DNA of 64,000 bases from contig CAVOXS010000003.1 of NCBI GenBank assembly GCA_963700415.1, forward strand, positions 45,256 through 109,255, given 5' to 3'. How positions within the stretch are numbered: position 1 is the first letter of the stretch; every line of letters starts with the position of its first letter. The translations under genes were made by a program, and so were the position numbers. Origin of the DNA: an uncultured beta proteobacterium. GTDB lineage: Bacteria; Pseudomonadota; Gammaproteobacteria; Burkholderiales; Casimicrobiaceae. Of the stretch, positions 4,861-48,913 are shown in pieces. Below the pieces are notes generated by a model. That model ran no database searches and was not told the DNA's origin. It was given only the letters and a program-made list of their open reading frames with translations.

Positions 4861-5879
4861 TCATCGGGTCGCGCCAGTGCCGGTGGCGCCGATCGGAAAA
4901 TGGCAGGCGATGGTTCGCCCGCCGCCGATTTCGTCGTAGCTCGGCGGGTCCCGGCGGCAGCGTTCCTGCGCATCGGGGCAGCGCTGATGAAAGTGACATC
5001 CCGGCGGCGGCGACAACGGAGAGGGAATCTCCCCCTGGATCGCCTTGAACTCAACCAGCGTATCGGAGTCCAGGACCAGCTTGGGGACGCTTTCGAGCAA
5101 CGCCCGCGTGTAAGGATGATACGGGCGCCGGTAGACCTCGTCGGCGGTGCCTGTCTCGACGATCCGGCCGAGGTACATGATGGCCACCCGGTCCGACAGA
5201 TGCCGGACGACGCCCAGATCATGGCTGATGAACAGCATCGTCAGACCGAGGTCGCGGCGCAGCTTGAGAAACAGGTTGATGATCTGCGCCTGGATCGAGA
5301 TGTCGAGCGAGGCAACCGGTTCGTCGCAGATCAGCACCTCGGGCTGCATCGCGAGCGCGCGGGCGACGGCGATGCGCTGGCGCTGCCCGCCCGAGAACTG
5401 GTGCGGGTAACGGGAGGCGAACTGCGGTTCCAGCCCGACGGCGTCGAGCCACCGGCCTACGTAGGCGTTCGCACCGCCGGAAGCGACGAGCCCATGGGCG
5501 ACCGGGCCTTCGGCGATGACCTCGCCGATCTTCATCCGCGGATCGAGCGACGCGAACGGATCCTGGAACACCATCTGCACTCGAGTGGTGCTCTTCACCG
5601 GCCGGCTGCCGGCGGACATGACCGGTTTGCCCTCGAGCATGGCCTGACCCGAGGTCGGAGGCAGGATGCCCGCCAGCATGCGGGCCAGCGTGGACTTGCC
5701 GCAGCCGGATTCGCCCACCAGCCCCAGCACCTGACCGCGCGCGATCGACAGCGACACGTCGTCGACCGCCCGCAGCGACCGGGTCTCGATCGGGCTCCCG
5801 AGCCTGGCGGCGATCTTCTCGCCGAGGCTGAGCCGCGGCCTGAAATGGCGCGACAACCCGATGGCCTGCAACAGCGCGC

Positions 5880-5883
<4 letters not shown>
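4861..5883 (-). CDS. peptide ABC transporter ATP-binding protein (DppF/OppF-like)
   Basis: Starts MSALLQAIGLSRHF. It has Walker A GESGCGKST, the signature FSGGQRQR, Walker B LICDEP, and the C-terminal oligopeptide-type extension (HPYTRALL, CHFHQRCP). ATGA overlap with the upstream ATPase gene. Confidence 0.9.
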
Positions 5884-6856
<973 letters not shown>

Positions 6857-6860
<4 letters not shown>

Positions 6861-7736
6861 CGCCGCAGCCGCGGGTTGATCTGGTCGCGGATCTGATCGC
6901 CCACCAGGTTGATCGCGACAATCAGCGCGATCAGGGCGATTCCCGGATAGATCGATATCCAGTACCGGCCGGAGAGCAGGTATTCGAAGCCGTTGGCGAT
7001 CAGCGAGCCCATCGACGGCTCGGTCGGCGGCAGGCCCAGGCCGAGGAACGACAGCGTGGCCTCCAGCGCGATCGAATTGGCGACCTGCACGGTCGCCACG
7101 ACGATCAGCGGCGGCAGGCAGTTGGGGAGAATGTGGCGGAAGATCACGCGCGCCGCCGACAGCGGCGTGGACAGCGCCGCCTCGACATAGTCCTTGCCGC
7201 GCTCGACGGTGGCCGCGCCGTGCGCGGTGCGCGCGAAATACGCGTATTGCGCCGCCACCAGCGCGGCGATCAGCTGGGGCATGCCCTTGCCCAGCACCGC
7301 CGAAATCATCAGCGCCAGCAGGATCGCGGGAAACGACAGCTGCAGGTCGATGATGCGCATGATGAGGGCCTCGGTCCGGCCGCCGACGAAGGCGGCGGTG
7401 GCACCCATGGTCACGCCAAGCGCGAAGGCCACCGCTCCGGCAAGCACGCCGACCTGGATGGAGATCCGGAGGCCGTAGACGATCGCCGACAGCAGGTCGC
7501 GACCCTGCGCGTCGGTGCCGAGGTGATAGACCATCCCGCCGGCGCCGACATATCCCGGCGGGCGCCGCGCGTCGCCCAGCACGAGATTGGCCAGGTCGTA
7601 CGGATTCTGCGGCACGAGCCACGGCGCGAACAGCGCGGCAAGCGGCGATCAGCAGCACGGTCGCCAGCGCGATCACCGCCACCCGGCTCTGCCGGAACTC
7701 GAACCAGAACAACGCCAGCGGGCTCGAGCGATCCAT
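6857..7736 (-). pseudogene. peptide ABC transporter permease (DppC-like), frame interrupted by one extra base near 7643 (possibly an assembly error)
   Basis: The N-terminal TM segment MDRSSPLALFWFEFRQSRVAVIALATVLLIAA is in the frame of ORF 5880..8231. The remainder (LAALFAPWLVPQNPYDL...DQINPRLRR) is in the frame of ORF 6857..7615. The span is 880 nt (3n+1). Confidence 0.8.
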
Positions 7737-8707
7737 CAGGCGCGACGCAGCCGGATCCGCGGGTCGAGCGCGGCGTTGGCGAGATCGACCAGCAGGTTGA
7801 TCATGATGAACAGGAACGCGACCAGCATCAGGTACGCGACCATCACCGGCCGGTCGAGCGCGTTGATCGAGTCGATGATCAGCTTGCCCACGCCGGGCCA
7901 GGAGAAGATCGTCTCGGTCACCACCGCGAACGCCAGCGTGGAGCCGAGCTCCAGGCCGAACACGGTGACCAGCGGGATCGAGATCAGGCGCAGCGCGTGG
8001 CGGCGCAGCACGGTCGCTTCCGACTGGCCGGTGGCGCGTGCGAATTTCACCGTGTCGGTCATCATCACTTCGCCGGTGCCCGCGCGCGCCAGGCGGATCA
8101 TCAACGCCATCTTGAACAGCGACAGGTTCACCGCCGGCAACAGCAGGTGGGCAATCCCGTTGCCGGTGACGAAACTCCACTGCACGCCGAACAGCGTTGC
8201 GGTCTGTCCCCGGCCGCCGGCCGGCAGCCACCCCAGCGACACGGCGAAGCAGTAGATCAGCACCAGGCCGACCCAGAAGGTCGGCACCGAGAACCCGAGC
8301 GTCGAGATCGCCATGATGGTCCGCGCGGCGACCGTGTCCGGTCGATAGCCGGCGTACATGCCCAGCGGAACGCCGATCAGCGTCGCGCCGAGGACGGCGG
8401 CCAGCGTCAGCTCCACCGTCGCCGGCAGCCGCTGGAAGATCAGCTCGAGGACCGGCATGTTGAACACGAACGAACGACCGAAGTCGCCGCTCACGAGGCG
8501 CCCGAGAAAGCGACCGTACTGCTGCCAGAGCGGAAGATCGAGCCCGTAGGCACGGATCGCCTGCTCGCGAATCTCCTGGGTCGCATCGGGCGAGAGCAAT
8601 ACGTCGATCGGGTTGCCGATCGCGTAGACGCCGACGAACACCAGCCCGGAAATCACCAGCATCACCAGCATCGCCTGGAGCAGGCGCTGAATCAGGAAGC
8701 CCAGCAT
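7736..8707 (-). CDS. peptide ABC transporter permease (DppB-like)
   Basis: 323-aa ORF. It begins MLGFLIQRLLQAMLVMLVIS and ends DPRIRLRRA, with six hydrophobic segments. TGATG junction with the next permease gene. Confidence 0.9.
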   Translation of the reverse strand: MLGFLIQRLLQAMLVMLVISGLVFVGVYAIGNPIDVLLSPDATQEIREQAIRAYGLDLPLWQQYGRFLGRLVSGDFGRSFVFNMPVLELIFQRLPATVELTLAAVLGATLIGVPLGMYAGYRPDTVAARTIMAISTLGFSVPTFWVGLVLIYCFAVSLGWLPAGGRGQTATLFGVQWSFVTGNGIAHLLLPAVNLSLFKMALMIRLARAGTGEVMMTDTVKFARATGQSEATVLRRHALRLISIPLVTVFGLELGSTLAFAVVTETIFSWPGVGKLIIDSINALDRPVMVAYLMLVAFLFIMINLLVDLANAALDPRIRLRRA

Positions 8708-14748: not shown

Positions 14749-17700
14749 TCAGTGAAAATCCCGCGACCGGGTTTGCAGATCGCCCAGCAGCGCAGAGAGG
14801 TCCGCGAGCCGTCCGGCGAGGACGTGGACGACCTGCCCCTCGCGCTCCACCTTGCCGAAGACCGCGAGCAGCTTCGCGCCGAGCAGTTCGCGGCGCTGGC
14901 GCTCGCCGACGTCGCGCCAGACGATCACGTTGGTGGCGCCGGTTTCGTCTTCGAGCGTGACGAAGACCACGCCGCTCGCGGTGTCGGGCCGCTGCCGGCC
15001 GATGACGATTCCCGCGGTGCGGACGATCCGGCCCGGCGGCGCCCGCGCGATCTCGGCCGCCGTGGCGAGCCGCCGCCGCTGCAGCTTGTCGCGCAGGAGA
15101 GCCAGCGGGTGCCGCCGCAGCGTGAGCGACAGCGTGCGGTAGTCGGCGACGATGTCCTGTCCTTCGGTCGGCGGCGGCAGCACGGGATCCGCGGTGTCGA
15201 AAACGCTGCCTGCGAGCAATGCCGGCAGCCGCTCGACGCCGGCGACCCCCCACGCCGCGTCGTGCCGATGACCGGCGAGCGCCGCGAGCGCGTCGGCCTC
15301 GGCCAGGCAGGCGAGGTCGCGGCGGTCGAGCCGCGCGCGGTGCGCGAGGTCGGCGACACTCGCGAAGGGCTGCGCGCTCCGGGCTTCGACGATCCTGCGC
15401 GCGCCGGATTCGGAGAGTCCGGCGACGAGACGCAGACCCAGGCGCAGCGCGGGAGAAAGCAGGATCGGGGTCGGACACGAATCTTCATTCCGGCCGATCG
15501 CAGGAGGAAGGCCTTGCCGAAGATTCGCATCCGACCCCGATTCCGCCGGCCGAATTTCTTCCAGCGTGCAGTCCCACTCGCTCGTCGTCACGTCCGCGGG
15601 GCGCACCTCGACGCCATGCCGGCGAGCATCCTGCACGAGCTGCGAGGGCCCGTAGAAGCCCATCGGCAGCGAGTTGAGCAGCGCGGCGCAGAACGCGGCG
15701 GGCTCGTAGCGCTTCAGCCACGCCGACACGTAGACGAGCAGCGCGAAGGAGGCCGAGTGCGATTCCGGAAAGCCGTACTCGCCGAAGCCCAGGATCTGCT
15801 GGTAGATCTGCCGCGCGAAGCCTTCGGCGTAGCCGCGCGCGCCCATGCCGTCGATCAGTTGCTGCTCGAATTTCTCGAGGCCGCCCTTGCGCCTCCAGGC
15901 GGCCATCGAGCGCCGCAGATGGTCCGCCTCGCCCGGCGTGAATCCCGCCGCGACGATCGCGAGCTGCATCACCTGCTCCTGGAAGATCGGCACGCCGAGC
16001 GTGCGCGCGAGCACGCTCTGCACCGCTTCGCTCGGATAGGTGACGGGCTCCAGACCTTGCCGGCGGCGCAGGTACGGATGCACCATGCCGCCCTGGATCG
16101 GGCCGGGGCGCACGATGGCGACCTCGATCACGAGGTCGTAGAAGCACGCGGGCTTGAGCCGCGGCAGCATCGCCTGCTGCGCGCGCGACTCGATCTGGAA
16201 CACGCCGATGGTATCGGCGCGCTGGCACATCGCGTAGACCTCCGGGTCCTCGGCCGGAATGTCCTGGAGGGTCAGCGGCGCCAATGGGGTCAGAGTCGAT
16301 ATGCCGGCGCGCGATTCATGATCGCTGCGCGGTGGATGGAAATTCGACTCTGACCCCATTCCGGAGCGCCGCCATTGCGGGGAAATGTGACCTGACCCCA
16401 ATTTCGACACCATGTCGAGGCAGCGCCGGATCGCCGACAGCATGCCGAGCGCGAGGCAATCGACCTTCAGCAGGCCCAGCGCGTCGAGATCGTCCTTGTC
16501 CCACTGGAGGACGGTGCGCTCCGCCATCGCCGCATTCTCGACCGGCACCATCCGCTCCAGCAGGTCGCGCGCGATGACGAACCCGCCGACGTGCTGCGAC
16601 AGGTGGCGCGGGAAGCCCATCAGCTCGCCCGTCAGCTTGACGAGACGGACGAACATCGGGTTGTCGGGCTCGAACCCCGCCTCGCGGACACGCTCGGGCC
16701 TGACCTCGCGGCCGTCCCACCACGCGAACATGCCGGCGAGCCGGTCCACCTGCGCAAGGTCGAGGCCCAGCGCCCGGCCGACATCGCGCACGGCGCTCTT
16801 CGGCCGGTAGGTGATGAGCGTCGCGGCGAGCGCCGCGCGGTCGCGGCCGTATTTCGCGTAGATGTACTGGATGACTTCCTCGCGCCGCTGGTGCTCGAAA
16901 TCGACGTCGATGTCGGGCGGCTCGTTGCGCTCCTTCGAGATGAACCGCTCGAACAGCATGTTCATGCGCGCGGGATCGACCTCGGTGATGCCGAGCGCGT
17001 AGCAGACCGCCGAGTTGGCCGCCGAGCCGCGGCCCTGGCAGAGAATGCCCTGCGCGCGCGCGAAGGCGACGATGTCGTGGACGGTGAGGAAATACGGCTC
17101 GTACTTCAGTTCCGCGATCAGCGCGAGCTCGTGCTCGATCAGCGCCCGGACGTCGGGAGGGCAGATCGCATCCGCGGGGACAGACCCCGATGCCACGCGG
17201 GGAATCGGGGTCTGTCCCCGAATGCCGCGCGGGAAGCCGTGGCCGGTCCCCGCATACCGCCGCGCCAGTCCCGCTTCGACCAGTGCGCGCAGATGCGAGG
17301 CCGGCGTCTGCCCCGGCGGGACGATTTCCTCCGGATACTCGTAGCGCAATTCGTCCAGCGAAAACGCGCAGCGCCGCGCGATGGCGACAGTCTCGGCGAG
17401 CAGCTCGGGCGGGTAGATCGTCGCGAGTCGTGCGCGCGAGCGCAGATGCCGCTCGCCATTCGGATGGAGCGCGTAGCCGCATTCGGCGAGCGGCTTCCTG
17501 ACGCGGATCGCCGTGAGCGTGTCCTGCAGCGCGCGCCGGGCGCGCACGTGCATGTGAACGTCGCCGGCGGCGACCTGCGGCAGGCCTGTCTGCCGTGCCA
17601 GCGCCGCGCAGCGCGCAAGCCGGGCGCGGTCGCCGGCACGGGCGAAGAGTTCGACCGCGAGCCACGCGCGGCCGGGAAAGACGGCGGCAACCCAGCGCGC

Positions 17701-18234
17701 GATGGCGAGGGTCTCGCCATCGCGGGGAACGGGAATCGGATACGGGCCGATCGGGGTCGGATGCGAATCCTCATCAGAACCGTCCCCCTGTGTGCGGCCG
17801 GAATGGGAATTCGTATCCGCCCCCGATCCCGACTCCGATCGCCTCGCCGGCTCCGGCGGCACCCACAGCGCGAGGAGCCCGTCCGCGAACGTCGCGACGT
17901 CGTCGCGGGACAGCGCGTAGCGGCCCTTCTGCGCGCTGCGCCGCCCGCGCGTGATCAATTGCGCGAGGTTGCCGTAGCTCGCGCGGTCGGTGGCGAGCAG
18001 CACGAGCTTCACCCCGTCGATGAGCGCGACCTCGCTGCCGATGACGAGCGGAAGGCCCGCGTGCTTCGCTGCGAGATGCGCGCGGACGATGCCCGAGAAC
18101 GAGCACTCGTCGGTGATCGCGAGCGCCGCGTAGCCCTGTGCCCGGGCGCGCTCGACCAGTTCCTCCGGGTGCGACGCGCCGCGGAGGAACGAGAAATTCG
18201 ACAGGCAGTGCAGTTCGGCGTAGGCGGGGAGCAT
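14749..18234 (-). CDS. dnaE2: error-prone DNA polymerase DnaE2 (ImuC), intact but carrying four in-frame repeat insertions
   Basis: ATG at 18234 ([24 protein letters not shown] domain). Further motifs: [28 protein letters not shown], and the C-terminal OB fold [18 protein letters not shown]. The gene has 1161 codons. The 51-codon upstream extension in the ORF track covers the operator region and is rejected. Confidence 0.92.
15464..15541. repeat. 78-nt palindromic repeat unit (copy E1) inside dnaE2
   Basis: atcggggtcggacacgaatcttc...gaagattcgcatccgaccccgat. The terminal inverted repeats match at 21/23. The unit is exactly 26 codons and is translated as [26 protein letters not shown]. Confidence 0.85.
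16283..16360. repeat. 78-nt palindromic repeat unit (copy E2) inside dnaE2
   Basis: aatggggtcagagtcga...tcgactctgaccccatt with perfect 17-bp terminal inverted repeats. It is 78 nt long. The left-arm pattern GGGGTCrGAnnCGAATyTyCAT is shared with E1/E4. Confidence 0.85.
16381..16403. repeat. solo right-arm copy of the same repeat
   Basis: ggaaatgtgacctgaccccaatt versus the E2 right arm ggaaattcgactctgaccccatt, about 18/23 identical. It lies 20 nt after E2 and is also translated within dnaE2. Confidence 0.6.
17176..17251. repeat. GGGGACAGACC/GGTCTGTCCCC-type palindromic repeat (copy E3) inside dnaE2
   Basis: A perfect 16-bp inverted repeat ggggacagaccccgat / atcggggtctgtcccc is separated by 12 nt. 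It is followed by a gggaagcc-containing arm shared with the lexA and imuA leader copies. The outer boundaries are approximate. Confidence 0.75.
17750..17827. repeat. 78-nt palindromic repeat unit (copy E4) inside dnaE2, inverted relative to E1
   Basis: Its reverse complement aligns without gaps to E1 at 62/78 positions by hand count. It has the same ATCGGGG...CCCCGAT ends, the same 78-nt length and the same codon phase. Confidence 0.85.
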
Positions 18235-18286: not shown

Positions 18287-18302
18287 CCGTGTAAATATAC
18301 GG
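18287..18302 (-). promoter_or_regulatory. candidate LexA operator (CCGT-N8-ACGG), proximal to dnaE2
   Basis: ccgtgtaaatatacgg, which reads CCGTATATTTACACGG on the dnaE2 strand. It lies 53 nt upstream of the dnaE2 ATG. The same palindrome type sits in the lexA promoter. Confidence 0.6.
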
Positions 18303-18315
18303 TATTCGACAATGA

Positions 18316-18331
18316 CCGTATGAATAGACGG
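18316..18331 (-). promoter_or_regulatory. candidate LexA operator (CCGT-N8-ACGG), distal to dnaE2
   Basis: ccgtatgaatagacgg, which reads CCGTCTATTCATACGG on the dnaE2 strand. It starts 29 nt from the start of the proximal box. Confidence 0.55.
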
Positions 18332-18426: not shown

Positions 18427-18467
18427 GGGGACAGACCACGGCTTCCGCGGAACTCGGGTCTGTCCCC
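18427..18467. repeat. short GGGGACAGACC/GGTCTGTCCCC hairpin repeat in the dnaE2 / M14 peptidase intergenic region
   Basis: ggggacagaccacggcttccgcggaactcgggtctgtcccc, ending 21 nt before the peptidase ATG. Confidence 0.8.
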
Positions 18468-18488: not shown

Positions 18489-20176
18489 ATGCCCGCCATC
18501 GCCTTCGACCGTTTCTACCGCTACGCCGACCTCACCGCGATCCTCCAGGCCTTCGCGGCCGAGCATCCGGGCCTCGTGTCGATCGAATCGATCGGCAAGA
18601 GCCACGAGGGCCGCGACGTCTGGGTGCTGACCGTCACCAGCGCTCGCCACGGGCCCCGCGGCCGAGAAGCCGGCGTTCTGGGTGGACGGCAACATCCACT
18701 CGACCGAGGTCGCGGCATCGGCGGCGAACCTTTACTTCCTGCACACGCTTGGTCACCGGGTACGGCAGCGATCCCGACGTGACCCGGGCGCTCGACACCC
18801 GCGCGTTCTACGTCTGTCCGCGGATCAACCCGGACGGCGCCGAATGGGCGCTCGCGGACAAGCCGAAATGGGTCCGCTCGAGCACCCGCCCGTATCCGTG
18901 GGACGAAGAGGAGATCGACGGGCTCACCGTCGAGGACGTCGACGGCGACGGCCGGATCCTCCAGATGCGCATGCCCGATCCCAACGGACTCTGGAAGGAC
19001 CACCCCGAGCAACCGGGCCTGATGATCCGGCGCGACCCCGTCGAAACCGGCGGCAGCTATTACCGGATACTTCCCGAAGGCACGATCGAGGGTTGGGATG
19101 GCTTCACGTTACGAGTGAAGAAAAATAAGCAGGGACTTGATCTGAATAGAAATTTCCCGGCGAACTGGCGCCAGGAGTTCGAGCAGCTCGGTGCCGGGCC
19201 GTTTCCAACCTCGGAGCCCGAGGTCCGCGCGGTCGTGGAGTTCGTCGCCGGCCATCCGAACATCACCGGGGGCGTCGCCTTTCACACCTGGAGCGGCGTG
19301 CTGCTGCGTCCGTTCGACCATCAGTCCGACGCGGAGATGCACGCCGAGGACCTCTGGCACTACCGGAAGGCCGGGGCGAAGGGGACCGAGCTGACCGGCT
19401 ATCCGGCGATCTCGGTCTACGAGGAATTCCGCTATCACCCCAAGCAGGTCATCGGCGGCGCGTTCGACTGGATCTACGAGCACCTCGGGATGTTCAGCTG
19501 GGTGGTCGAGATCTGGAGCCCGATGCACGAGGCCGGCATCAGGAACTACAAATACATCGACTGGTTCCGCGACCATCCGATCGAGGACGACCTCAAGCTC
19601 TATCGCTGGAACGTCGAGCAGCTCGGCGGGGCCGCGCACATCCCGTGGCGGCCGTTCGACCATCCGCAGCTGGGCCGCATCGAGATCGGCGGCTGGAACC
19701 GCTTCCACGCGTTCGGCAACCCGCCGCCGGCGTTCCTCGAGCGCGAGATCGCGCGCTTCCCGAAGTGGCTCCTCTGGCAGGCGCTGACGTCGCCGAAGAT
19801 GGAGCTGGTGGCGGCCGCAGCCGACCCGCTGGGCGACGACCATTGGCGCGTCCGGCTCGTCGTCCAGAACACCGGCTGGCTGCCGAGCTACGTCTCGAAG
19901 CGGGCGCTGGAGCGCAAGGTCGTGCGCGGAGTCATCGCCGAGATCGCGCTGCCCGCCGGCGCCGATCTCGTCCACGGCAAGCGGCGCGAGGACCTGGGCC
20001 AGCTCGAAGGCAAGTGGGGCAAGCACACCGGCGTGTCCTTCTGGCCCGACTACAACGTGACCGACGATCGCGCGAAGATCGAGTGGGTCGTGCGGGGGCG
20101 CAAAGGCGACCGGATCGACCTCGTCGCGCGACACGAGCGCGCCGGCACGGTGCGCGCCGCGGTGACGCTTGGCTGA
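18489..20176 (+). pseudogene. M14 family zinc carboxypeptidase, two +1 frame breaks near 18650 and 18750
   Basis: Three frames carry successive parts. [50 protein letters not shown] is in frame 0. PAAEKPAFWVDGNIHSTEVAASAANLYFLHTL is in frame 1. VTGYGSDPDVTRALDTRAFYVCPRINPDG...NRNFP...FHTWSG is in frame 2. The span is 1688 nt (3n+2). Confidence 0.8.
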
Positions 20177-22011: not shown

Positions 22012-22762
22012 GGAATCGGCGCGGCGGGAACGCTCTTCGTCGCAGGTTGCGAGCGGCTGTCCAACAGCGACTGGTTTCCGAAGGTCCTGAGCGCCGGCGA
22101 GACGGCAAGCGCCGCGGCGGCGCGCGCAGTGACCTCGCGCAAGTCGATGGCGCAGGAGTTCACCGATGCCGATCGCTCGCCGACCTTTCGCAGCAATGGA
22201 ACCGCGGAGCCGGACAGCGATGCCTATCGGCTGCTCGCGGCGAACGGGTTTGCCGACTACCGCCTGGAGGTCGGCGGGCTCGTCGCGCAGCCGGCCAGCC
22301 TTTCGCTGGCGGACCTGCGCGCGCTGCCGAGCCGGACGCAGATCACGCGGCACGATTGCGTCGAAGGCTGGAGCGCCATCGCGAAGTGGAAGGGCGCACG
22401 GCTCTCAGCGCTGCTCGAGGCGGTGCGACCGGGGCCCCGTGCGCGGTTCGTCGTGTTCCATTGCGCCGATCCCATGGAAGCCGGCGGCGCCAGTCCCTGT
22501 TACGAGAGCATCGATCTCGAGGATGCGTTCATCCGCAGGACTATCCTGGCCTACGAAATGAACGACGCGGTGTTGCCCGTCGCCAACGGCGCTCCGGTCC
22601 GATTGCGCGTCGAACGGCAGCTGGGCTACAAGCACGCGAAGTACGTGATGCGCATCGAACTGGTCGAAAGCTTCGCCGGGATCGCGGGCGGGAAGGGCGG
22701 TTACTGGGAGGCACCAGGGCTATCAGTGGCCCCGGTCACGCATTCCCGAATACGCCGTGTAA
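22012..22762 (+). pseudogene. molybdopterin-dependent oxidoreductase (sulfite oxidase / YedY-like fold), missing its own start and fused in frame to the peptidase remnant; probable +1 break near 22711
   Basis: GIGAAGTLFVAGCERLSNSDWFPKVL looks like the end of a Tat/lipoprotein signal. Further motifs: FRSNGTAEP, SRTQITRHDCVEGWSAIAKWKGARL, APVRLRVERQLGYKHAKYV. The expected C-terminal GGYWE-HQGYQW continues in the +1 frame to TAA at 22760-22762. Confidence 0.65.
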
Positions 22763-22975
22763 AAACCACTCGCCGTCGTCGATCCCGTAGCGGTGATCGC
22801 GATAGATCCACACGGTCTCGCCGCGCGGGTTCTCGGCGACGAAGTAATCGCGGCGCACGTCGCGGCCGTCCCACCATCCCGACTCGATCCGCTCCGGCCC
22901 GTCGCGCAGCACCCACGGTTGCGCTTCGAGCCGGTGACCGAGCGGCTCCGGCTCGGCGAGCAGCCAGACCGGGCG

Positions 22976-23060
22976 GGGGACAGGCCACGGTTTTCGAAGC
23001 GGTCGTTCGGCTGTTCCCGTGAAATCGCGTGGCCTGTCTCGGACAAGTCGATTCTGACCC
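22976..23060. repeat. composite palindromic repeat inside imuB (GGGGACAGGCCACG...CGTGGCCTGTC unit plus a GTCGATTCTGACCC half arm)
   Basis: gggggacaggccacgg...cgcgtggcctgtctc followed by ggacaagtcgattctgaccc. If it begins at 22975 its length is 86 nt (3n+2), which equals the frame change seen across it. Confidence 0.75.
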
Positions 23061-23760
23061 TGCTTTCGCGCCACGCGCGCTCGGGCCGGTGCTCGGCGTG
23101 CGGCGCGACGAGCGTCACCGCATCTTCGCCCAGCCGTGCGCGCAAGCGGTCGAGCAGCGGAACGGTCGCGAGCTGCCTCGTCCCCGGGGAAGAGGCCGAG
23201 GTTGCGGCTGGCCAGAGGGGCGGTCGCCTTGCTCGCGAGCGTGATCGCCTCGACCGGCGCCGGCAGCACGATGCGCGCGAGCCGCTCGCGCAGCACGGCG
23301 ACGAGATGCGCGGGCTCGCGCGCCGGCGCGGCGAGCGCGAAGCCGACGATGGTGGCGGGCACGCCGGTCGCAACACGGACGTAACGCTCGTGCGCGAGCA
23401 CGAGCGACATTTCGACGACACCGAGCCCGCGGCCCGTGAGCCATCCCGCCAACTCGAGCACGAGCCGGTTCACCGCGAACGCGAGCGCGTCGACGCTTGC
23501 CACCGGCGCCGGCAGGTCGAGTTTTCCCGTATAGCCCGGCGGCGGCACGAACGGCGGTCGCGGCTCCGGGACGAGCCCGCGCACGCGATCGAGAATGGCG
23601 ACGAAATCCGCGCCCACGCGCCGTGCCAGCGCGGCGCGCGGCAGCGCGCACGCCTGCCCGAAGGTCGTGATGCCGGCCGCGGCGAGCGTCGCGACGGCGG
23701 CGGGATCGGCTTCGGTGAGAGAGAGCGGCAACGGGAGAAGCGCGTCGAGCCAGGACATGC

Positions 23761-23840
23761 GGGCGAATCAGGCGCGGACGTTTGCTCGATCGCTCCCGGT
23801 CTTGCTCGCGAGAGCTGCCGGAAAAGCGGGATCTGACCCC
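23761..23840. repeat. degenerate ~80-nt copy of the GGGGTCAGA-type repeat inside imuB, carrying the in-frame stop
   Basis: The right arm ccggaaaagcgggatctgacccc resembles the E2 arm. The degenerate left arm is gggcgaatcaggcgcgg. The TGA at 23768-23770 falls in the TCAG core of the left arm. Confidence 0.55.
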
Positions 23841-24341
23841 GCCGTTGCCGCGCGCGCGAACAGCAGGGCCGCGGCGGGCGTGGGCGCGAGCGCGAGCCGC
23901 GTGGCGTAGCCAAGGTCGTGCGCGCCCCGGGAAAGCCTTGCGCTCAGCTGCGGCAGGCCGCCGAAGAGCCGCAGGCTGCCGCCGATCTCCGCGAGCACCG
24001 CGTCGGGCGGCGCGAGCGCGACAGCCGGCGTGAACTGCGTTGCCCAGGACGCCACGGCTTCGAGCGCGGCGGACTCGGCATCGGGTCGCGGTCGCGCAGC
24101 ACGAGGTCGGGCGCGAGCGCGAGCGACGCCGAGACGAGCTGTCCCGGGCGGATCCCGGCGTCGCGCGCGCCGGCATTCGCGTCGACGATGCGCGGCGTGC
24201 GCCCGCCGCTGCCCACCGCGAACGGCTTTGCCGCCTCAGCGGGCGAGGCCGCCCGCGCGAAGACGTCGAGGGGCAGCGAGGGCAGAAGCAGGCACGCCCA
24301 GAGCATGGCGGATGGCGGCAACGCGCGCGGGCCTGTTCACG

Positions 24342-25052
24342 CTACGTCGGCAAGACGTGTGGCGGGCGCAAACGGCCGGACGCGAGCGCACGGCCCGCGC
24401 TGGTGCGAGGATCGAGGAGCGGCGGGACGCCGCCGGCGGCATCCACGTCGAGGCATACCGGCTGCGCGAGCTCGCCGCCGCGGCGCTTCAGCACGTGCAC
24501 CGCGAGCCGGCCCTCCCGCGGGGCGAGTGCCAGCCGCAACGACGCGGTGGCGGCGATCGCGCGCTGGCCGGGACGCCGCCACAGCACGCCCCAGGTGCGA
24601 CCCTCGCGCGCGGCGACCGCGAGCCTGCGCATCGTGCGGTCGTCGTGCGGGCCGAGCCACGCGAACGCGGCGCCGCATCCGGGCGCACGCAGCGCCTGCT
24701 CGTAGGCCCACAGCTGATCCGCCGGGTTGCGGCAATGGACGACCAGCAGCCGCGCGAGATCGAGCCCCGCGGCAGCGAGCGCCGGCGCGTACGGCACATG
24801 GGGCGGCGCGATCCAGACGACGTCACGGCCCTGTGCCTGCAACCGCGCGAGCGCCGGCAGCGTGAGACGGATCTCGCCGATGCCCTCGCGTTCGAGCACG
24901 ATCTCGGTCAACGCGGCTCCCGGCCAGCCGCGACCGGGCAGCACGGCATCGAGCGCGGGAAAACCCGACGGCAACGCGGCGGGCTCGGGCGCGCAGTCGC
25001 CGCCGCGCCAGATGGCGGGGTTGGACAGCACGGCGGCGAGGGCGGGATTCAT
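24342..25052 (-). CDS. imuA: ImuA (RecA/SulA-like SOS mutagenesis protein)
   Basis: MNPALAAVLSNPAIWRGGDCAPEPAALPSGFPALDAVLPGRGWPGAALTEIVLEREGIGEIRL..., 236 aa. It forms the lower part of ORF 24342..26207 and lies directly upstream of imuB. Confidence 0.85.
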   Translation of the reverse strand: MNPALAAVLSNPAIWRGGDCAPEPAALPSGFPALDAVLPGRGWPGAALTEIVLEREGIGEIRLTLPALARLQAQGRDVVWIAPPHVPYAPALAAAGLDLARLLVVHCRNPADQLWAYEQALRAPGCGAAFAWLGPHDDRTMRRLAVAAREGRTWGVLWRRPGQRAIAATASLRLALAPREGRLAVHVLKRRGGELAQPVCLDVDAAGGVPPLLDPRTSAGRALASGRLRPPHVLPT

Positions 25053-25120
25053 GGGGACAGACCATGCTCTTCCGGCAGGCTTCGCACGGGCAATGTCGGG
25101 GACAACGCGGTCTGTCTCCC
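25053..25120. repeat. GGGGACAGACC/GGTCTGTC-type palindromic repeat filling the VOC-imuA intergenic gap
   Basis: ggggacagaccatgctcttccggcaggcttcgcacgggcaatgtcggggacaacgcggtctgtctccc. It abuts the imuA ATG (25052) and overlaps the VOC stop codon (25120-25122) by 1 nt. It is about 80% identical by hand alignment to the lexA leader copy. Confidence 0.85.
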
Positions 25121-25579
25121 TATGCTCCCATCGCCTTCGCCGCGCGTTTTTCGAGCTCGTCCGGCGGAACGTCTTCGACGTGAGTGGCGAGATACCAGTG
25201 ATAGCCGAACGGATCGTCGACGCCACCGGTGCGATCGCCGTAGAACTGGTTCGCGACCGGCCGGGTGAGCGTAGCACCGGCGGCGACGGCCTGCGCGACC
25301 GCGCGTCGACATCCTCGACATAGACCATCAGCGAGATCGGCGAGCCGCCGAGGGTGCGTGCGCTCTTCGCGCCCATCTCGGGGATTCGTCGGCGAGCATG
25401 ATCGGCGAATCGCCGATCCGGATCTCGGCGTGGCCGATCTTGCCGCCGGGAGCCGGCATGCGCAGCAGCTCGACGGCGCCGAACGCTTTCCGGTAGAACT
25501 CGAGAGCGCGCGTGGCATCGTCGAGGATGAGGTAGGGGGTGACCGAGTGGTAGCCCTCGGGAATCGGTTTCACGGCCAT
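25120..25579 (-). pseudogene. VOC family protein (glyoxalase/PhnB-like), two -1 frame breaks near 25384 and 25303
   Basis: MAVKPIPEGYHSVTPYLILDDATRALEFYRKAFGAVELLRMPAPGGKIGHAEIRIGDSPIMLADE is followed by PEMGAKSARTLGGSPISLMVYVEDVDA, then AQAVAAGATLTRPVANQFYGDRTGGVDDPFGYHWYLATHVEDV..., in three frames. The span is 460 nt (3n-2). AGGAGG lies before the ATG. Confidence 0.8.
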
Positions 25580-25672
25580 GGGTTGCCTCCTGCAAGGTTG
25601 TGACGAGGGTCGGGCGAGCGTGGCGCCGGCGTCGATGCAACGACCGTCGGCATCCCGCTTCGCGCCGGTGCT

Positions 25673-26305
25673 TCAACCGGCCGGCCAGTGCTGCGCGAAC
25701 ACCGGCGCGACCTTGGGTTGTGCTTCGATGCGCAGCAGCGTTTCGTGGAACGCCGGACGCGCCTGCTGCAGATGCGCCCGGGATCCCGACCATTTCGACA
25801 CGACGGCGGCGAGGATGTCGAGCGCGCCGATCTTCTCGCCGCCAAGGTATGGCCGCGCCGGAAAGAGATCGGCGAACATTTCCCAGTGCCGGTGCAATCG
25901 CGCGCGCGAGCCCACCCGGATGCGCTCCTGCATCGCCTCGTCCGCGTTCTCGCACCAGCGCCCGGGAAAATCGATGATGCTGATCGCGGCGTAGCAGTTC
26001 GCCGCGATGAACACCAATCCCCGGATCGCCTGCGCCCGCGCCGAGGCGTCGCGCGGCAGGAGCCCGCTGTCCGGGTGCACGCTGCCGAGATGGATGAGGA
26101 TCGCCGCGCTTTCGGAGAGCACGCTGCCGTCGGGCAGCACGAGGGTCGGAATCTGGCCCAGCGGATTCAGTTGCAACAGCTCGGCGAACGCATCGTTGGG
26201 TTCCCACGATGCGGTCTCGACGACGCGATACGGGGCGCCGATGATTTCCAGCGCGGCCTGCGTCGACGCCGAGCCTGAGCCTTTCTTGCCATAGAGCGTG
26301 TACAT
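25673..26305 (-). CDS. glutathione S-transferase family protein
   Basis: MYTLYGKKGSGSASTQAALEIIGAPYRVVE...NPLGQIPTLVLPDGSVLSESAAILIHL, 210 aa. The RBS is GGAAAAGGAGG. It starts 26 nt after the lexA stop. Confidence 0.85.
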   Translation of the reverse strand: MYTLYGKKGSGSASTQAALEIIGAPYRVVETASWEPNDAFAELLQLNPLGQIPTLVLPDGSVLSESAAILIHLGSVHPDSGLLPRDASARAQAIRGLVFIAANCYAAISIIDFPGRWCENADEAMQERIRVGSRARLHRHWEMFADLFPARPYLGGEKIGALDILAAVVSKWSGSRAHLQQARPAFHETLLRIEAQPKVAPVFAQHWPAG

Positions 26306-26331
26306 GACGCCTCCTTTTCCTGCTTTTCCGC

Positions 26332-26964
26332 TCACCAGCCCTTGCCCTGGCGCACGAGCCCGACGGCCACGCCCTCGATCGTCAGCGGAGCCTTCTTCGG
26401 GTCGACGACGATCGGCTCGAAAGCGGGGTTTTCGGCGACGAGCAGAATCTGCCCGCCGCGGCGCTTCAGGCGCTTCACCGTGACCTCGTCGCCGCCCCGT
26501 CCGGGGAGCCGCGCGACGACGATCTGTCCCGAGCGGGCGTCGGCGGTGCGGTGCACGGCGAGAAGATCGCCGTCGAGGATGCCGGCGTCCTTCATGCTCT
26601 GGCCGCGCACGCGCAGCAGGTAATCGGCGCGCGGCGCGAACAGCGCGGGGTCGAGCCGCACGTGCGCCTCGATGTGCTCGGTCGCGAGGATCGGGCTGCC
26701 GGCGGCGACGCGCCCCACCAGCGGCAGGCCCGTGCCGGGGAGATCCGGCGTCTCTTTCAACCGCAGTCCGCGCGACGCGCCGGGCGTGAGTTCGAGCGCG
26801 CCTTTGCGGGCGAGCGCGCGCAGGTGGTCTTCGGCCGAGCTCGCCGTGCTGAAGCCCAGGCCCGCGGCGATTTCGGCGCGCGTGGGCGGCATGCCCGTGG
26901 ACTCCAGGTGCCGGCGGATCCAGTCGAGGACCTTCTGCTGACGGGCGGTGAGCGGGATCGACAT
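26332..26964 (-). CDS. lexA: LexA repressor
   Basis: [39 protein letters not shown] (winged HTH). It has the cleavage site VAAGSPILA and the Ser/Lys dyad region [12 protein letters not shown]...VTVKRL. ATG at 26964. The longer ORF-track start reads through the repeat. Confidence 0.9.
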
Positions 26965-27035
26965 GGGGGACAGACCACCTTCTTTCGGGAAGCCTCGCAC
27001 GAGCGGTGTCGGGGACAAGAACGGGGTCTGTCCCC
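26965..27035. repeat. GGGGACAGACC/GGTCTGTCCCC-type palindromic repeat forming the whole lexA 5' leader
   Basis: gggggacagaccaccttctttcgggaagcctcgcacgagcggtgtcggggacaagaacggggtctgtcccc. It sits directly between the operator/promoter and the lexA ATG. Confidence 0.85.
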
Positions 27036-27048
27036 TCTTTTTGCATAG

Positions 27049-27064
27049 CCGTATGGATATACGG
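27049..27064 (-). promoter_or_regulatory. candidate LexA operator (CCGT-N8-ACGG) in the lexA promoter
   Basis: ccgtatggatatacgg, which reads CCGTATATCCATACGG on the lexA strand. It lies 7 nt downstream of the -10 hexamer. Confidence 0.65.
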
Positions 27065-27071
27065 TAAGTGA

Positions 27072-27099
27072 ATTATAGACGGCCGGAGGCCAACGTCAA
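27072..27099 (-). promoter_or_regulatory. sigma70-type promoter of lexA (TTGACG-N16-TATAAT)
   Basis: Read on the minus strand: TTGACG (27099-27094), a 16-nt spacer, then TATAAT (27077-27072). Confidence 0.6.
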
Positions 27100-27272
27100 C
27101 TCCCCGGTGCACGGGCATCCGCCGCCGCGTTGACCGCCATCAACATCGGGCCACGGCGTGCTGCTAGCGATGCATTTTCACTGGGCATGGGTGATCGCAA
27201 CCGGACGGCGCCAAGCGCGAGGCTCGTCCGCCAGCCGGGCGAACACCGGAGCCGGAGCGCGAAGGTACTCCA

Positions 27273-28274
27273 ATGAACGCGACGATGCAGGCGATGGTGT
27301 GCGAAGGCGCGGGGCGGCCGCTCGCGCTGCGCACGCTGCCGCGACCCGAACCCGACCCGGGAGAGGTGCAGATTGCCGTGCGCGCCTGCGGCGTCTGCCG
27401 CACCGATCTCCATCTCGTCGACGGCGAGCTGCCGGACCCGAAGATCCCCGTCATCCCCGGCCACGAGATCGTCGGCACGATCACCGCGCACGGACCCGGC
27501 GTCACCGCCCCCGCCATCGGCTCGCGGGTCGGCGTGCCATGGCTGGGCGGCAGCTGCGGGCATTGCGGCTATTGCGCGACGGGGCGCGAGAATCTCTGCG
27601 GGGACGCGCGCTTCACCGGTTATCAACGCGATGGCGGTTATGCGGAATACGCGGTGGCCGATGCCCGCTACGTCTTGCCGCTGCCCGACCGTTACGACGA
27701 CGTTCACGCCGCGCCCCTGCTGTGCGCCGGGCTGATCGGCTATCGCGCCTACGCGCTGGCGGGCGAGGCGCGCACGCTCGGACTCTACGGCTTCGGCGCG
27801 GCGGCGCATCTGATCGCGCAGGTCGCGCTCGCGCAGGGGCGCACGGTGTTCGCCTTCACGCGCCCCGGCGACAGCCCCGCGCAGGCGTTCGCGCGGAAAG
27901 TCGGCGTGCACTGGGCCGGCGCCAGCGACGCCACGGCGCCGGCACCGCTCGACGCCGCGCTGATCTTCGCTCCGGTCGGCGCGTTGATCCCCGCCGCGCT
28001 GGCGGCGACGGCGCGTGGCGGCACCGTCGTCTGCGCCGGCATCCACATGAGCGACGTTCCGGCATTTGCCTACCGGCTGCTCTGGGGCGAGCGCTGCGTG
28101 CGTTCGGTTGCCAATCTCACCCGACGCGACGGCGAGGCGTTTCTCGCACTCGCGGCGACGATTCCCCTGTCGGTGCACGTCGAGCCCTACCCGCTCGAAC
28201 GTGCCAACGACGCGCTCGCGCAGCTGCGCGCCGGTGCCGTGGCGGGCGCCGCCGTGTTGACGCCGGACGGCTGA
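27273..28274 (+). CDS. zinc-dependent alcohol dehydrogenase family protein
   Basis: 333-aa ORF with GVCRTDLH, GHEIVG, structural zinc cysteines CGHCGYCATGRENLC, and LYGFGAAAH. Confidence 0.9.
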   Translation: MNATMQAMVCEGAGRPLALRTLPRPEPDPGEVQIAVRACGVCRTDLHLVDGELPDPKIPVIPGHEIVGTITAHGPGVTAPAIGSRVGVPWLGGSCGHCGYCATGRENLCGDARFTGYQRDGGYAEYAVADARYVLPLPDRYDDVHAAPLLCAGLIGYRAYALAGEARTLGLYGFGAAAHLIAQVALAQGRTVFAFTRPGDSPAQAFARKVGVHWAGASDATAPAPLDAALIFAPVGALIPAALAATARGGTVVCAGIHMSDVPAFAYRLLWGERCVRSVANLTRRDGEAFLALAATIPLSVHVEPYPLERANDALAQLRAGAVAGAAVLTPDG

Positions 28275-43742: not shown

Positions 43743-46617
43743 TCAACCCGCCGGCGGCTGCCCTTCCTTGTGCGTCTCGACGATCTGCAGCGGCTCGTCG
43801 GGGATGACGACGCGCGGCGGCCGCACGCGGCGCGGTCCGGCAGGCGGCGCCGGGTCGGGTTCGGGCATGGGCACCGCTTTCGATCGCGTCTCGACGAGCT
43901 CGAGGCCGGAATCGGCGGGGAGCGTCATCGACACGCTCGGCAACGCCTCGATCGGGCGCGGCGGCGGCGCCGCAGGCCGGGCGGCGCAACGGCCTCCGGC
44001 GCGACGGCTGCAGGAGCCGCGACCGGCGCGACCGACACGTTCGACTTCCGCCGGTGCGGTGGCGCGTTCGGTTTCCGCCGGCGCGATGGCGCGTTCGGTT
44101 TCCAGCGGCGCGACGGCGCGCGGCGGTTCGACGGCTTGCAGTGGCGGCACGGGAGCCATCGGCGGCGCGATGTCGGCTTGAGGGGCGTGCGCGACCTCCG
44201 CCACGCGCGCGGGGGCCTCCGGCAGCACCGGTGCCTCGGCGTCATCGACGCGTGCTCCGGTGCCGGCGGTCGCGCGACCTCCGGACGCTCGCCACGGTCG
44301 CCGCGGCGGTGACGGTCACGGCGGCGGCGGTTGCCGTCGCCGCCTTCACGCGGAACGGCAGCCTGATCCAACGGACGCTCCATTCCCGGCTCGGCGGCCT
44401 CGATGGCGGGCAGGGTGGCATCCGCGCTGACAGGCGGCTGCGACGCGGTTCGCGGGGCGGACGAGGCTCGCGCGGCGGCTGACCCTCACGCGGCGGCTGA
44501 CCTCGCGCGGGCTCACGCGGCGGCACGCGGTTCGCGCGGTGGCCGGGCTTCGCGGGGCGGCTGACCATCGCGTGGCGGCTGACCATCGCGCGGCGGTCGC
44601 TGCTCACGCGGCGGACGCGGCTCGCGCGGCGGCTGTCCTTCGCGCGGCGCCTGACCGTCCCGGCGCTGACCCTGCGCGCCCTGCTGCGGACGCGCGTCGC
44701 CGCGACCCGCCGCGATTGTCGCCGACCGTCGCCGCGGCGCTCGTCGCGCCGGCCCTGGCCGCGACCGCGGTCGCGATCTCCGCGGCCGTCCCGGTCGCTG
44801 CGGCCGTCTCGCGCTTCGCGGCGCGGTTCGCGGCCTTCGCGCGGCGCTTCCGCTCGTGGCGGCGGCGCCGGAATGGCCGGCTCGCTGCGGAACCAGCCCA
44901 GGACCCCGGCGAGCCAGCCGGTCGAGTTCCGCGGCGCGCGCGGCGGCGCAACCGGCGCGGGCGTGGGTACCTCCACCGGAACGGGCGCCGGCTCGGCCGG
45001 CGTGATGCCCTTGACCGCCGCCTCCTGCCGCGGCTCCTTCGCTTCCTCCTTCATCTGCTGGACGCGGTCGGGCTCCTCCGGCTGCGTGACGAGGTTGAAG
45101 CTCAGCGGCAGCGGCTCGCTCTGGTTGAGGTCGTCGTGGCGCAGCCGCTCGATCGTGTAGTTCGGCGTCTCCAGATGGCGGTTCGGCACGAGCAGCACGT
45201 TGACCTTGAACCGCGTTTCGATCGACAGCACTTCCGTGCGCTTTTCGTTGAGCAGGAAGGTCGCGACGTCGACCGGCACCTGCGCGACGATCTGCGCGGT
45301 GTTTTCCTTCATCGCCTCTTCCTGCAGGATGCGCAGGATGTGGAGCGCGGTCGATTCGGTGCCGCGGATGTGGCCGATGCCGTGGCAGCGCGGGCAGGGG
45401 ATGTACGCCGACTCGGCGAGCGCCGGGCGCAGCCGCTGGCGCGACAGTTCCATCAGGCCGAAGCGGGAGATCTTGCCCAGCTGGACGCGCGCGCGGTCGT
45501 AGCGCAGCGCTTCCTTGAGGCGATTCTCGACCTCGCGCTGGTTCTTCGCGCTCTCCATGTCGATGAAGTCGATGACGATGAGGCCGCCCAGGTCGCGCAG
45601 GCGCAGCTGGCGGGCGATCTCGTCGGCGGCCTCGAGATTGGTGTTGAACGCGGTCGCCTCGATGTCGCCGCCCTTGGTCGCGCGTGCCGAGTTGACGTCG
45701 ACCGAGACCAGCGCCTCGGTGTGGTCGATGACGATCGCGCCGCCGGAGGGCAGCGGCACCTGCCGCGCGTACGCGGTCTCGATCTGGTGCTCGATCTGGA
45801 AGCGCGAGAACAGCGGCACGTCGTCCTTGTAGAGCTTGACGCGATGCACGTTGGCCGGCATCACGTGGCTCATGAACTGCTGCGCCTGCTCGTAGATCGC
45901 CTCGGTGTCGATCAGGAGCTCGCCGATGTCCGGCTGGAAGTAGTCGCGGATCGCGCGGATGACGAGGCTCGATTCCTGGTAGATCAGGAACGCGCCGGAC
46001 TGCAGCTTCGACGCGTCCTCGATGGCGCGCCACAGCTGCAGCAGGTAGTTCAGGTCCCACTGCAGCTCTTCGCTGCCGCGGCCGATGCCGGCGGTGCGGG
46101 CGATGACGCTCATGCCCGCGGGAACGTCGAGCCCGCCGATGGCGTCGCGCAGCTCGTTGCGCTCCTCGCCTTCGATGCGGCGCGACACGCCGCCGCCGCG
46201 CGGGTTGTTCGGCATCAGCACCAGGTAGCGACCGGCCAGCGAGATGTAGGTCGTGAGCGCCGCGCCCTTGTTGCCGCGCTCGTCCTTGTCGACCTGGACG
46301 ATCAGCTCCATGCCCTCCTTGAGCTGATTCTGGATGCGCCGCGCCCGGCGCCTTCGCCTTCGTCGCCGTCCGGCCACGCCCTTGAGGAACTGGCGCGCGA
46401 TCTCCTTGAACGGCAGGAAGCCGTGGCGCTCGGTGCCGTAGTCGACGAAGCAGGCCTCGAGGCTGGGCTCGACGCGGGTGATGACGGCCTTGTAGATGTT
46501 GCTCTTGCGTTGCTCCTTGCTCGCGGACTCGATGTCGAGGTCGACCAGTTTCTGGCCGTCGACGATCGCCACCCGGAGCTCCTCCGCCTGGGTGGCGTTG
46601 AACAGCATGCGCTTCAT
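43743..46617 (-). pseudogene. rne: ribonuclease E; catalytic N-terminal half intact, Arg/Pro-rich repetitive C-terminal half with several frame changes
   Basis: ATG at 46617 ([24 protein letters not shown]). It has the S1, DNase I-like and Zn-link regions ([65 protein letters not shown]). As it stands the ORF stops at 44242. The family-typical C-terminal end (...SGLELVETR...LQIVETHKEGQPPAG*) is ORF 43743..44228 in another frame. The total span is 2875 nt (3n+1). Confidence 0.85.
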
Positions 46618-48880: not shown

Positions 48881-48913
48881 GGGGACAGACCCGCGAATCG
48901 GGGTCCGTCCCCC
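48881..48913. repeat. short GGGGACAGACC/GGTCCGTCCCC hairpin repeat between convergent genes
   Basis: ggggacagacccgcgaatcggggtccgtccccc lies 9 nt after the HAD stop and 1 nt before the LuxR stop. It is the only copy of the repeat superfamily I found outside 14.7-27.1 kb. Confidence 0.75.

Follow-up and report, generated by a model that had tools for sequence, protein, structure and literature searches.

Among the palindromic repeats of bacteria, those closest to the element studied here were described by Di Nocera et al. 2013 (PMC3733652), who found genes of the type of the tyrosine transposases that accompany repetitive extragenic palindromes (REPs), or RAYTs, named "TIRYT", between inverted repeats that contain GGGGWSAS and occur as dimers. 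In the same survey REPs were located mainly just 3' of genes, where they often supply the stop codon, while in-frame REPs were registered within DNA-repair genes, dnaE2 included, where they are in excess. Here we analyse a palindrome in the leader of the SOS repressor gene lexA, found in a 64,000-nt stretch of DNA (hereafter the window) from an uncultured beta proteobacterium of the Casimicrobiaceae (positions 45,256 to 109,255 of the forward strand of contig CAVOXS010000003.1, assembly GCA_963700415.1). Judged from its sequence, it is a REPIN, i.e. a hairpin-forming doublet of inverted REP units, belonging to a very widespread RAYT/TIRYT-associated (IS200-like Y1) repeat family. We consider it probable, with considerable reserve, that the host tolerates it as a passenger and that autoregulation of lexA buffers the drop in LexA translation predicted to result. 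The parts of the leader are given below; like all operon coordinates they refer to the minus strand of the window.

26332..26964, minus strand: lexA coding sequence, ATG at 26964..26962, with Pfam matches LexA_DNA_bind and Peptidase_S24.
27099..27072, minus strand: lexA promoter TTGACG-16 nt-TATAAT, 11 of 12 consensus positions.
27064..27049, minus strand: variant LexA operator CCGTATATCCATACGG (CCGT-N8-ACGG; in the more general form CCG-N10-CGG), a box directly after the -10 hexamer.
27036..27048, minus strand: 13-nt spacer CTATGCAAAAAGA between the box and the palindrome.
27035..26966, minus strand: leader REPIN of subfamily A, 70 nt, with termini GGGGACAGACC...GGTCTGTCCCC.
26981..26975, minus strand: Shine-Dalgarno-like AAGGTGG in the 3' arm of the REPIN, 10 nt before the lexA ATG.

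This promoter is the sole promoter-like site within 24500-27600 (3.1 kb). Its -10 hexamer is separated from the box by 7 nt (TCACTTA), and the A-rich 3' part (AAAAAGA) of the 13-nt spacer fits the outer-flank consensus AAAA-NN which, according to the flank logo, precedes the core of the repeat family. Hexamers, both distances and the gap before the palindrome are exactly as a preliminary description of this DNA had given them. An exact-sequence look-up of the window's LexA gave no recorded entry. For comparison we used 80 lexA loci (L001-L080) of species-representative genomes, Casimicrobiaceae or Burkholderiales metagenome-assembled genomes (MAGs). The promoter and the CCG-N10-CGG box right after the -10 hexamer were present in 76 of 78 related loci, and the usual beta/gammaproteobacterial box CTGT-N8-ACAG in none of the 78. 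The operator consensus of the bacterial family, TACCGTATATCCATACGGT, departs from the E. coli-type box by symmetric T-to-C and A-to-G changes. Since promoter and operator are kept in 76 of these 78 loci, the element lies almost certainly within the transcribed lexA leader. The REPIN itself consists of a 5' unit core (27035..27025), a 3' unit core (26976..26966) and an interior with the degenerate inverted unit TTGTCCCC at 27018..27011. It had been described as a 71-nt element flush with the ATG; it is indeed palindromic and start-adjacent, but measures 70 nt, and a single C, counted in the former length, separates it from the start codon. Both imuB and the gene of an M14 peptidase carry frameshifts in the window: imuB (22736-24321) is distributed over at least three different reading frames and the start of the peptidase gene (18490-18750) is out of frame with its body. 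Similar frame breaks occur in L001, L003 and L004; L002 is intact. Probably these are assembly indel errors rather than pseudogenes, and the "flush" placement is therefore accurate to about 1 nt only.

That the palindrome is a repeated element, as had been proposed, follows from 12 matches to its terminus motif in the window versus 1.22 expected; none of 100 shuffles reached 12. A metagenome scan by exact pattern, blind to lexA, gave at least 133 copies in at least 120 contigs or loci, and what is said below of metagenome copies refers to the matches listed. These copies share identical 11-nt termini, have unrelated interiors and come from contigs of 26-77% GC. The unit consensus in the flank logo is AAAA-NN-GGGGACAGACC-MC-NN-TTTT, and the palindrome extends past the conserved core into flanks that are variable yet complementary (4.13 of 6 positions versus 2.76 ± 0.08 in shuffles). 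The elements are inverted doublets of 32-79 nt, whose long forms are predicted to fold in isolation at -27 to -39 kcal/mol with z = -3.4 to -7.8. Because the unit itself is a small palindrome and the element an inverted doublet of it, it falls under the definition of a REPIN. Clustering of open reading frames (ORFs) near the metagenome copies revealed a protein recurring in several loci, which matches Pfam Y1_Tnp with E = 3e-11 to 8e-15 and has REP_Tyr_transpos as its best NCBIfam match (E = 5e-19 to 3.5e-22; 68-79 bits, under the 80-bit cut-off). The gene for this RAYT-like protein is bracketed by single inverted units in four independent contigs: L124 (units at 5833 and 6665), L125 (7665 and 8479), L096 and the Burkholderiales MAG L205 (GCA_035519135.1; 5924 and 6744). 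L125 (9.8 kb, 47% GC) is unusually dense, with seven near-identical 48-nt REPINs next to the RAYT-like gene. The sequences GGGGACAG and GGGGTCAG both satisfy GGGGWSAS; a GTAG or CGTC tag is absent from the A-rich/T-rich flank logo of the GGGGACAGACC family, and the core sequence, looked up in full-text literature, matched only unrelated primers.

Inverted termini and a large number of copies would also be expected of a miniature inverted-repeat transposable element (MITE) derived from an insertion sequence, one that ends in genuine terminal inverted repeats and prefers start codons as targets. Such an identity is hardly credible and was rejected: identity of at least 5 of 6 flank positions, the sign of a target-site duplication, was found in just 1 of 130 copies listed, the palindrome runs on beyond its core into complementary flanks that vary, single units enclose the associated gene, which encodes a Y1 transposase of the RAYT-like kind, and the copies listed display no start-codon preference. 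The latter point deserves attention, since a strongly preferred target next to start codons had been suggested as a reason for the neighbourhood of the element with two ATG codons, and a survey of its copies relative to starts had been proposed. Run on the metagenome copies listed, with genes called heuristically from ORF length and GC content at third codon positions, this survey pointed to stop codons instead. Among 133 copies there was none with an ATG within 0-2 nt of the element edge and a credible ORF leading outward; the only start-abutting case among them was one TTG with atypical codon composition, which is dubious, and a start at a distance of 0-1 nt was seen in the lexA and imuA loci only. 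Of 124 edges facing a start, 15 at most lay within 10 nt of a possible one, versus 40 of 94 stop-facing edges located no more than about 10 nt from a stop. For edges facing a gene end the median distance to the stop was 13.5 nt, with many values between -1 and 5 nt. It is clear from this contrast that stop codons, and not starts, are favoured by the family, and a start-codon target preference is not supported. Stop-proximal placement agrees with the published distributions of REPs (PMC3733652).

Within the relatives of the window the leader REPIN was found only in L001, L003, L004, L201 and L202, the last two being short metagenome contigs, while L002, L007, L203 and L204 encode LexA proteins 90-96% identical and have no REPIN in the leader. 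In the four MAG orthologs the pairwise divergence of the element is 6-15%, compared with 5-11% at four-fold degenerate sites of lexA, so that the leader copy diverges near-neutrally, approximately at the synonymous rate. An alignment of all six orthologs retains a 20-pair outer stem with 92% of cells paired, 8 of them as wobbles versus 9 unpaired cells; covariation in this stem did not exceed that of shuffles, 172 of 500 of which reached the observed value. Three mismatches in the 11-bp core of L202 and two or three in that of L004 testify to decay of the arms in two lineages. The species are, moreover, too close (four-fold divergence of no more than 11%) for mere retention of the element to be informative.

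The element had also been credited with a Shine-Dalgarno sequence of its own. The 3' arm does overlap the ribosome-binding region, but AAGGTGG is present only in the window and L201, i.e. in two of the six orthologs; the same site reads AACGTGG in L001 and L003, AGCGTGG in L004 and AACGGG in L202, and the family consensus is AACGTGG. Judging by this comparison, AAGGTGG is a derived C-to-G point mutation and not a cargo of the element, while the purine run GAAA(A) belongs to the inner stem of each family unit. The 3' part of the element bears a weak likeness to the ancestral leader of L005, L006 and L002 (CCGAAAG..., GTGATGCCCCCCGTGTCG). This similarity is too slight for a claim of homology; the likeness nevertheless suggests that the region from GCAAAAG to CCCCC-ATG may have been replaced rather than simply interrupted.

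The leader hairpin of the window has a predicted energy of -34.6 kcal/mol (z = -3.9), and in the minimum-free-energy fold of the full leader pairing takes in the Shine-Dalgarno-like AAGGTGG and all that follows it, as far as 1-2 nt from the ATG. For opening positions -20 to +13 the predicted ensemble costs are 21.7 (window), 23.9 (L001), 26.5 (L003) and 14.2 kcal/mol (L004), whereas leaders without a REPIN or an upstream ORF (L005, L006, L008, L009) require 8.6-16 kcal/mol. An upstream ORF conserved through the REPIN was rejected, as the only ATG that could start it does not share the frame of lexA in the window and is missing from L003 and L004. An in-frame N-terminal extension of LexA across the element was set aside: several genomes have this frame open, yet at 69% GC a run of about 17 codons free of stops is uninformative. 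A dedicated cis-regulatory leader RNA (riboswitch, thermometer or attenuator) obtained neither covariation support nor an Rfam match; no leader family reached the Rfam gathering threshold, and with E of up to 1 the segment 24900-27200 gave only tRNAs and chance-level matches. The leader stem is not followed by a U-tract. A literature search for effects of REPs on translation brought nothing specific.

Based on these data one can assume the following course of events. In the ancestor of a small Casimicrobiaceae clade a REPIN copy would have landed in the 5' untranslated region of lexA, downstream of the operator and ahead of the start codon, and sister copies of subfamily A would have settled at other cistron boundaries, namely between the lexA stop and the next gene, encoding a glutathione S-transferase (GST), in L003 and between the stop of a VOC/glyoxalase-like gene and imuA. 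Once transcribed, the element would fold into a hairpin whose 3' arm masks the ribosome-binding region and ends 1-2 nt short of the ATG, and it is for this reason that a drop in the efficiency of LexA translation initiation is predicted. Because LexA represses its own promoter, weaker translation would be balanced by de-repression. We infer transcription of the leader, formation of the hairpin in vivo and a dampening of translation that is buffered in this way. Tolerance of such a passenger is easier to accept since several relatives (L203, L204, L014 and others) already translate lexA from short leaders lacking a Shine-Dalgarno sequence.

The second copy of subfamily A adjoining a start codon is located in front of imuA.

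25119..25053, minus strand: subfamily A REPIN, 67 nt, exactly filling the gap between the stop of the VOC gene and the imuA ATG.

It adjoins the imuA ATG (25052) on one side and the TAG stop (25122..25120) of the upstream VOC/glyoxalase-like gene on the other, and has orthologs in L001, L003 and L004. Its resemblance to the leader copy, given earlier as about 80% in the same orientation, amounts to 81% over 53 ungapped nt, and the orientation is confirmed. What is not supported is the assumption that the two represent independent insertions. Both belong to one subfamily, which is defined by its interior. In the sampled DNA, about 1.6 Mb, this interior was seen in this operon alone: six genomes have it in the lexA leader, the window, L001, L003 and L004 have it between VOC and imuA, and L003 has it also after the lexA stop, before GST, with remnants at the latter site in L001 and L201. 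Its confinement to one operon makes local copying a better fit than two separate recruitments from copies spread over the genome. Given the habit of the family to abut stops and an operon with no spare intergenic space, the imuA copy is quite ordinary; it is the lexA-leader copy, placed between divergent genes, that is unusual.

Several further features accompany these copies. In the clade of the window a pair of GST and VOC/glyoxalase genes is inserted between lexA and imuA (25120-26290 in the window), which is missing in L002. In L003 this pair (6638-7974) is flanked by two direct subfamily A REPINs, and such bracketing suggests REPIN-mediated recombination or capture. L002 has lexA, imuA and imuB contiguous, without GST and VOC, and a different, GTAG-type REPIN at the lexA-imuA junction (4917-5008; element 4925-5000). 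The REPIN after the lexA stop in L201 (760-850) differs from the L003 copy at three positions in each arm (ACAGACCACG has become ACCGGCCGTG, and the opposite arm has changed to match), so that pairing is kept, which indicates either arm-to-arm correction or a swap for another variant. The end of the VOC gene and the first imuA codons are mutually complementary (25023-25150, minus strand), and their pairing is predicted to lengthen the REPIN hairpin by about 15 bp, to -62.9 kcal/mol (z = -5.7).

Could these hairpins have been retained in order to set translation of the SOS operon? A translational gate of this kind would at imuA place the start at the stem base, to be opened only by a ribosome terminating at the upstream stop (coupling), and at lexA would limit LexA re-synthesis. 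In one variant the 5' unit pairs with the interior TTGTCCCC, briefly freeing the start region. In both copies the distance from the stem base to the start is 0-1 nt, and 4-6 genomes keep it so. The predicted cost of opening the imuA start falls from 26 to 13.3 kcal/mol when a ribosome is held on the VOC stop, truncated leaders of four out of four orthologs are predicted to form the local hairpin between the 5' unit and the interior, which is a possible kinetic alternative, and AAGGTGG emerged inside the arm in two genomes. All this speaks in favour of co-option. It is opposed by element divergence close to the synonymous one, covariation not above shuffles, the core mismatches of L202 (three) and L004 (two or three), the missing Shine-Dalgarno-like sequence in four of six orthologs, the closeness of the species, which deprives retention of its value, and the fact that abutting a stop is the family's normal habit. 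On balance we regard the gate as unlikely.

A number of observations nevertheless weigh against the tolerated-passenger reading and should be considered together. Every subfamily A copy is oriented along transcription, and this uniformity also counts for the gate. Most one-sided changes in the 5' arm are A-to-G, which keep G-U pairs in the sense RNA only, and the A-to-C change in the 5' arm of the window together with C-to-G in its 3' arm re-register the stem instead of breaking it; both tendencies are suggestive without reaching significance. No RAYT gene was matched in the 64-kb window or in L001-L080. Opening costs of 16-22 kcal/mol were predicted for the leaders of L002 and L007, which have no REPIN and carry an upstream ORF: the lexA start is predicted to be buried there equally well, with the stop of that ORF overlapping it, a point that also counts for the gate, so that a structured start may be selected in this clade. 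Finally, five of the six full window copies lie in or beside SOS mutasome genes (about 9 kb), for which chance alone is insufficient.

The leaders just mentioned (about 107 nt; ~4190-4300 in L002 and ~770-880 in L007) share a conserved upstream ORF of 23 codons (MNDPLGRAPGICANYRFAPEAVA, MQNPFSGVFAIIVNLRFGPRGPE), whose TGA overlaps the lexA ATG as TGATG. L005, L006 and L008 have a GTGA stop/start overlap. These arrangements suggest that lexA may be translationally coupled to a leader peptide.

If not translation, the hairpins might influence the fate of the message. REP hairpins are known to stabilise upstream mRNA segments in E. coli, and hairpins of Correia elements in Neisseria are RNase III substrates. 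By analogy, the stem may be cut by RNase III or may shield the RNA from RNase E or exonucleases, giving a short-leader lexA mRNA, with segment stability setting the ratio of LexA to ImuA and ImuB. Uninterrupted stems of 18-20 bp in L001, L003 and L003_6638 would be suitable for this purpose, and a processed short leader would be workable, since L203, L204 and L014 translate lexA from short leaders lacking a Shine-Dalgarno sequence. However, in the window, L004 and L202 the stem is not continuous, and nothing sets these copies apart from ordinary members of the family. A role in RNA processing or stability is distinctly improbable.

The remaining full copies of the family in the window and the LexA-type boxes near them are as follows.

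22976..23040, minus strand: subfamily B REPIN in the imuB linker before conserved PRPVWLLAEPEPL; orthologs at 6925-6984 in L002, 10787-10846 in L003 and 9928-9987 in L004.
17176..17219, strand not given: 44-nt REPIN with GGGGACAGACC, in frame inside dnaE2 (14749..18234, minus strand; intact ORF).
18427..18467, strand not given: 41-nt REPIN in the intergenic region between divergent dnaE2 and M14-peptidase genes, 22 nt upstream of the peptidase ATG at 18490.
18287-18302 and 18316-18331, strand not given: two tandem LexA-type boxes upstream of dnaE2, CCGTGTAAATATACGG and CCGTATGAATAGACGG.
48881..48912, strand not given: 32-nt REPIN between convergent gene ends, the sole full window copy away from SOS genes.

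The imuB REPIN has 60-65 nt and contributes about 20 residues (GDRPRFPGTAEAACKTWSVP); its 60-nt ortholog is in frame in the intact, stop-free imuB of L002 (530 residues). In other Casimicrobiaceae the same ImuB linker accommodates a GTAG-type REPIN, translated as ...LDFS...RKVDSDPT.... The GTAG-tagged unit AGTAGGGTCAGACTCGAC represents a second REP family, which occupies the lexA-imuA junction of L002 and other operon sites, and which in L008 lies at ~5800-5890. Altogether, no junction of lexA-(GST-VOC)-imuA-imuB is without a REP-type palindrome, and imuB and dnaE2 carry such palindromes in frame. dnaE2 also has an 80-nt inverted-repeat pair (15462-15541 and 17750-17829; 80% complementary, 2.2 kb apart), which looks like a further insertion of a palindromic element.

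Such clustering might be produced at the DNA level, if single-stranded DNA at SOS-induced loci attracts Y1 transposases or if the palindromes serve as cruciform or protein-binding sites. Besides the window copies at lexA, imuA, imuB and dnaE2, this idea can rely on the GTAG-type units, 51 of 56 of which lie downstream of the lexA start over the 80 loci versus 5 in equally long upstream flanks, and on the published excess of REPs in DNA-repair genes including dnaE2 (PMC3733652). Against it, none of the 120 metagenome REPIN loci listed encodes a homolog of LexA, ImuA, ImuB or DnaE2, many of the operon copies are orthologous, leaving few independent events, and tolerance is accounted for just as well if selection is relaxed on genes that are rarely expressed and have flexible linkers. 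We consider an insertion bias or DNA-level function very unlikely; the clustering in SOS genes is real in this lineage and is not shown to be general. One may go further and imagine that the operon-specific REPINs have been domesticated as cistron-boundary hairpins, having the start at the stem base, with imuA depending entirely on coupling to the upstream ORF for its translation and LexA re-synthesis throttled after damage, and that the LexA regulon is a REPIN hot spot owing to insertion by Y1 transposases into single-stranded DNA at SOS-induced loci. To this combined speculation we ascribe a rather low probability.

If the element is indeed a tolerated passenger, the locus presents an ordinary REPIN in an unusual place, where an autoregulated gene absorbs a hairpin of about -35 kcal/mol before its start. 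It also serves as a warning that purine-rich REP arms are easily misread as Shine-Dalgarno sequences. The pattern in the SOS operon extends the published, yet unexplained, REP excess in DNA-repair genes, which could mean tolerance, targeting or function.

Comparison with known systems places the element nearest to REPINs and RAYTs (Bertels & Rainey 2011, PMC3116915; Nunvar et al.; TIRtron/TIRYT, PMC3733652), with which it shares inverted doublets, long hairpins and high copy number, single inverted units on either side of one Y1 transposase gene, the lack of target-site duplications, a preference for gene 3' ends where the stop is abutted or supplied, and in-frame copies including that in dnaE2. 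It differs from classical REPs in having neither a GTAG nor a CGTC tag, and its 11-nt core, spanning contigs of 26-77% GC, is broader in distribution than the classical species-specific ones. The position of the lexA copy is also peculiar, since it occupies a 5' untranslated region between divergent genes, where REPs are rarest, and the start codon adjoins the base of its stem. The copies in imuB and dnaE2, in frame and encoding about 15-22 residues in tolerant linkers, are comparable with Rickettsia palindromic elements and with intragenic REPs (PMC3733652), for which dnaE2 is an already listed REP-decorated gene. The element family and host are other than in Rickettsia, and here one ImuB linker carries varying REP families across the bacterial family.

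Correia/NEMIS elements of Neisseria and ERIC elements of enterobacteria and Yersinia are palindromic repeats of about 100-150 nt, with TA or other target duplications and no association with RAYTs. They would resemble the element analysed here in being transcribed together with genes and in bearing hairpins near starts, which in their case alter mRNA processing, stability or translation; their sequences are unrelated, and functional effects were experimentally shown there, while the hairpin of the lexA leader is a predicted one. Finally, leaders occluding the ribosome-binding site (translational coupling, RNA thermometers, dinQ-type; PMC5066626) resemble the lexA leader in the predicted burial of the start, in a pairing that may alternate with it and in the chance that a ribosome upstream may open it, but differ in that the structure is supplied here by a mobile repeat and not by a conserved dedicated leader with covariation support or an Rfam match.

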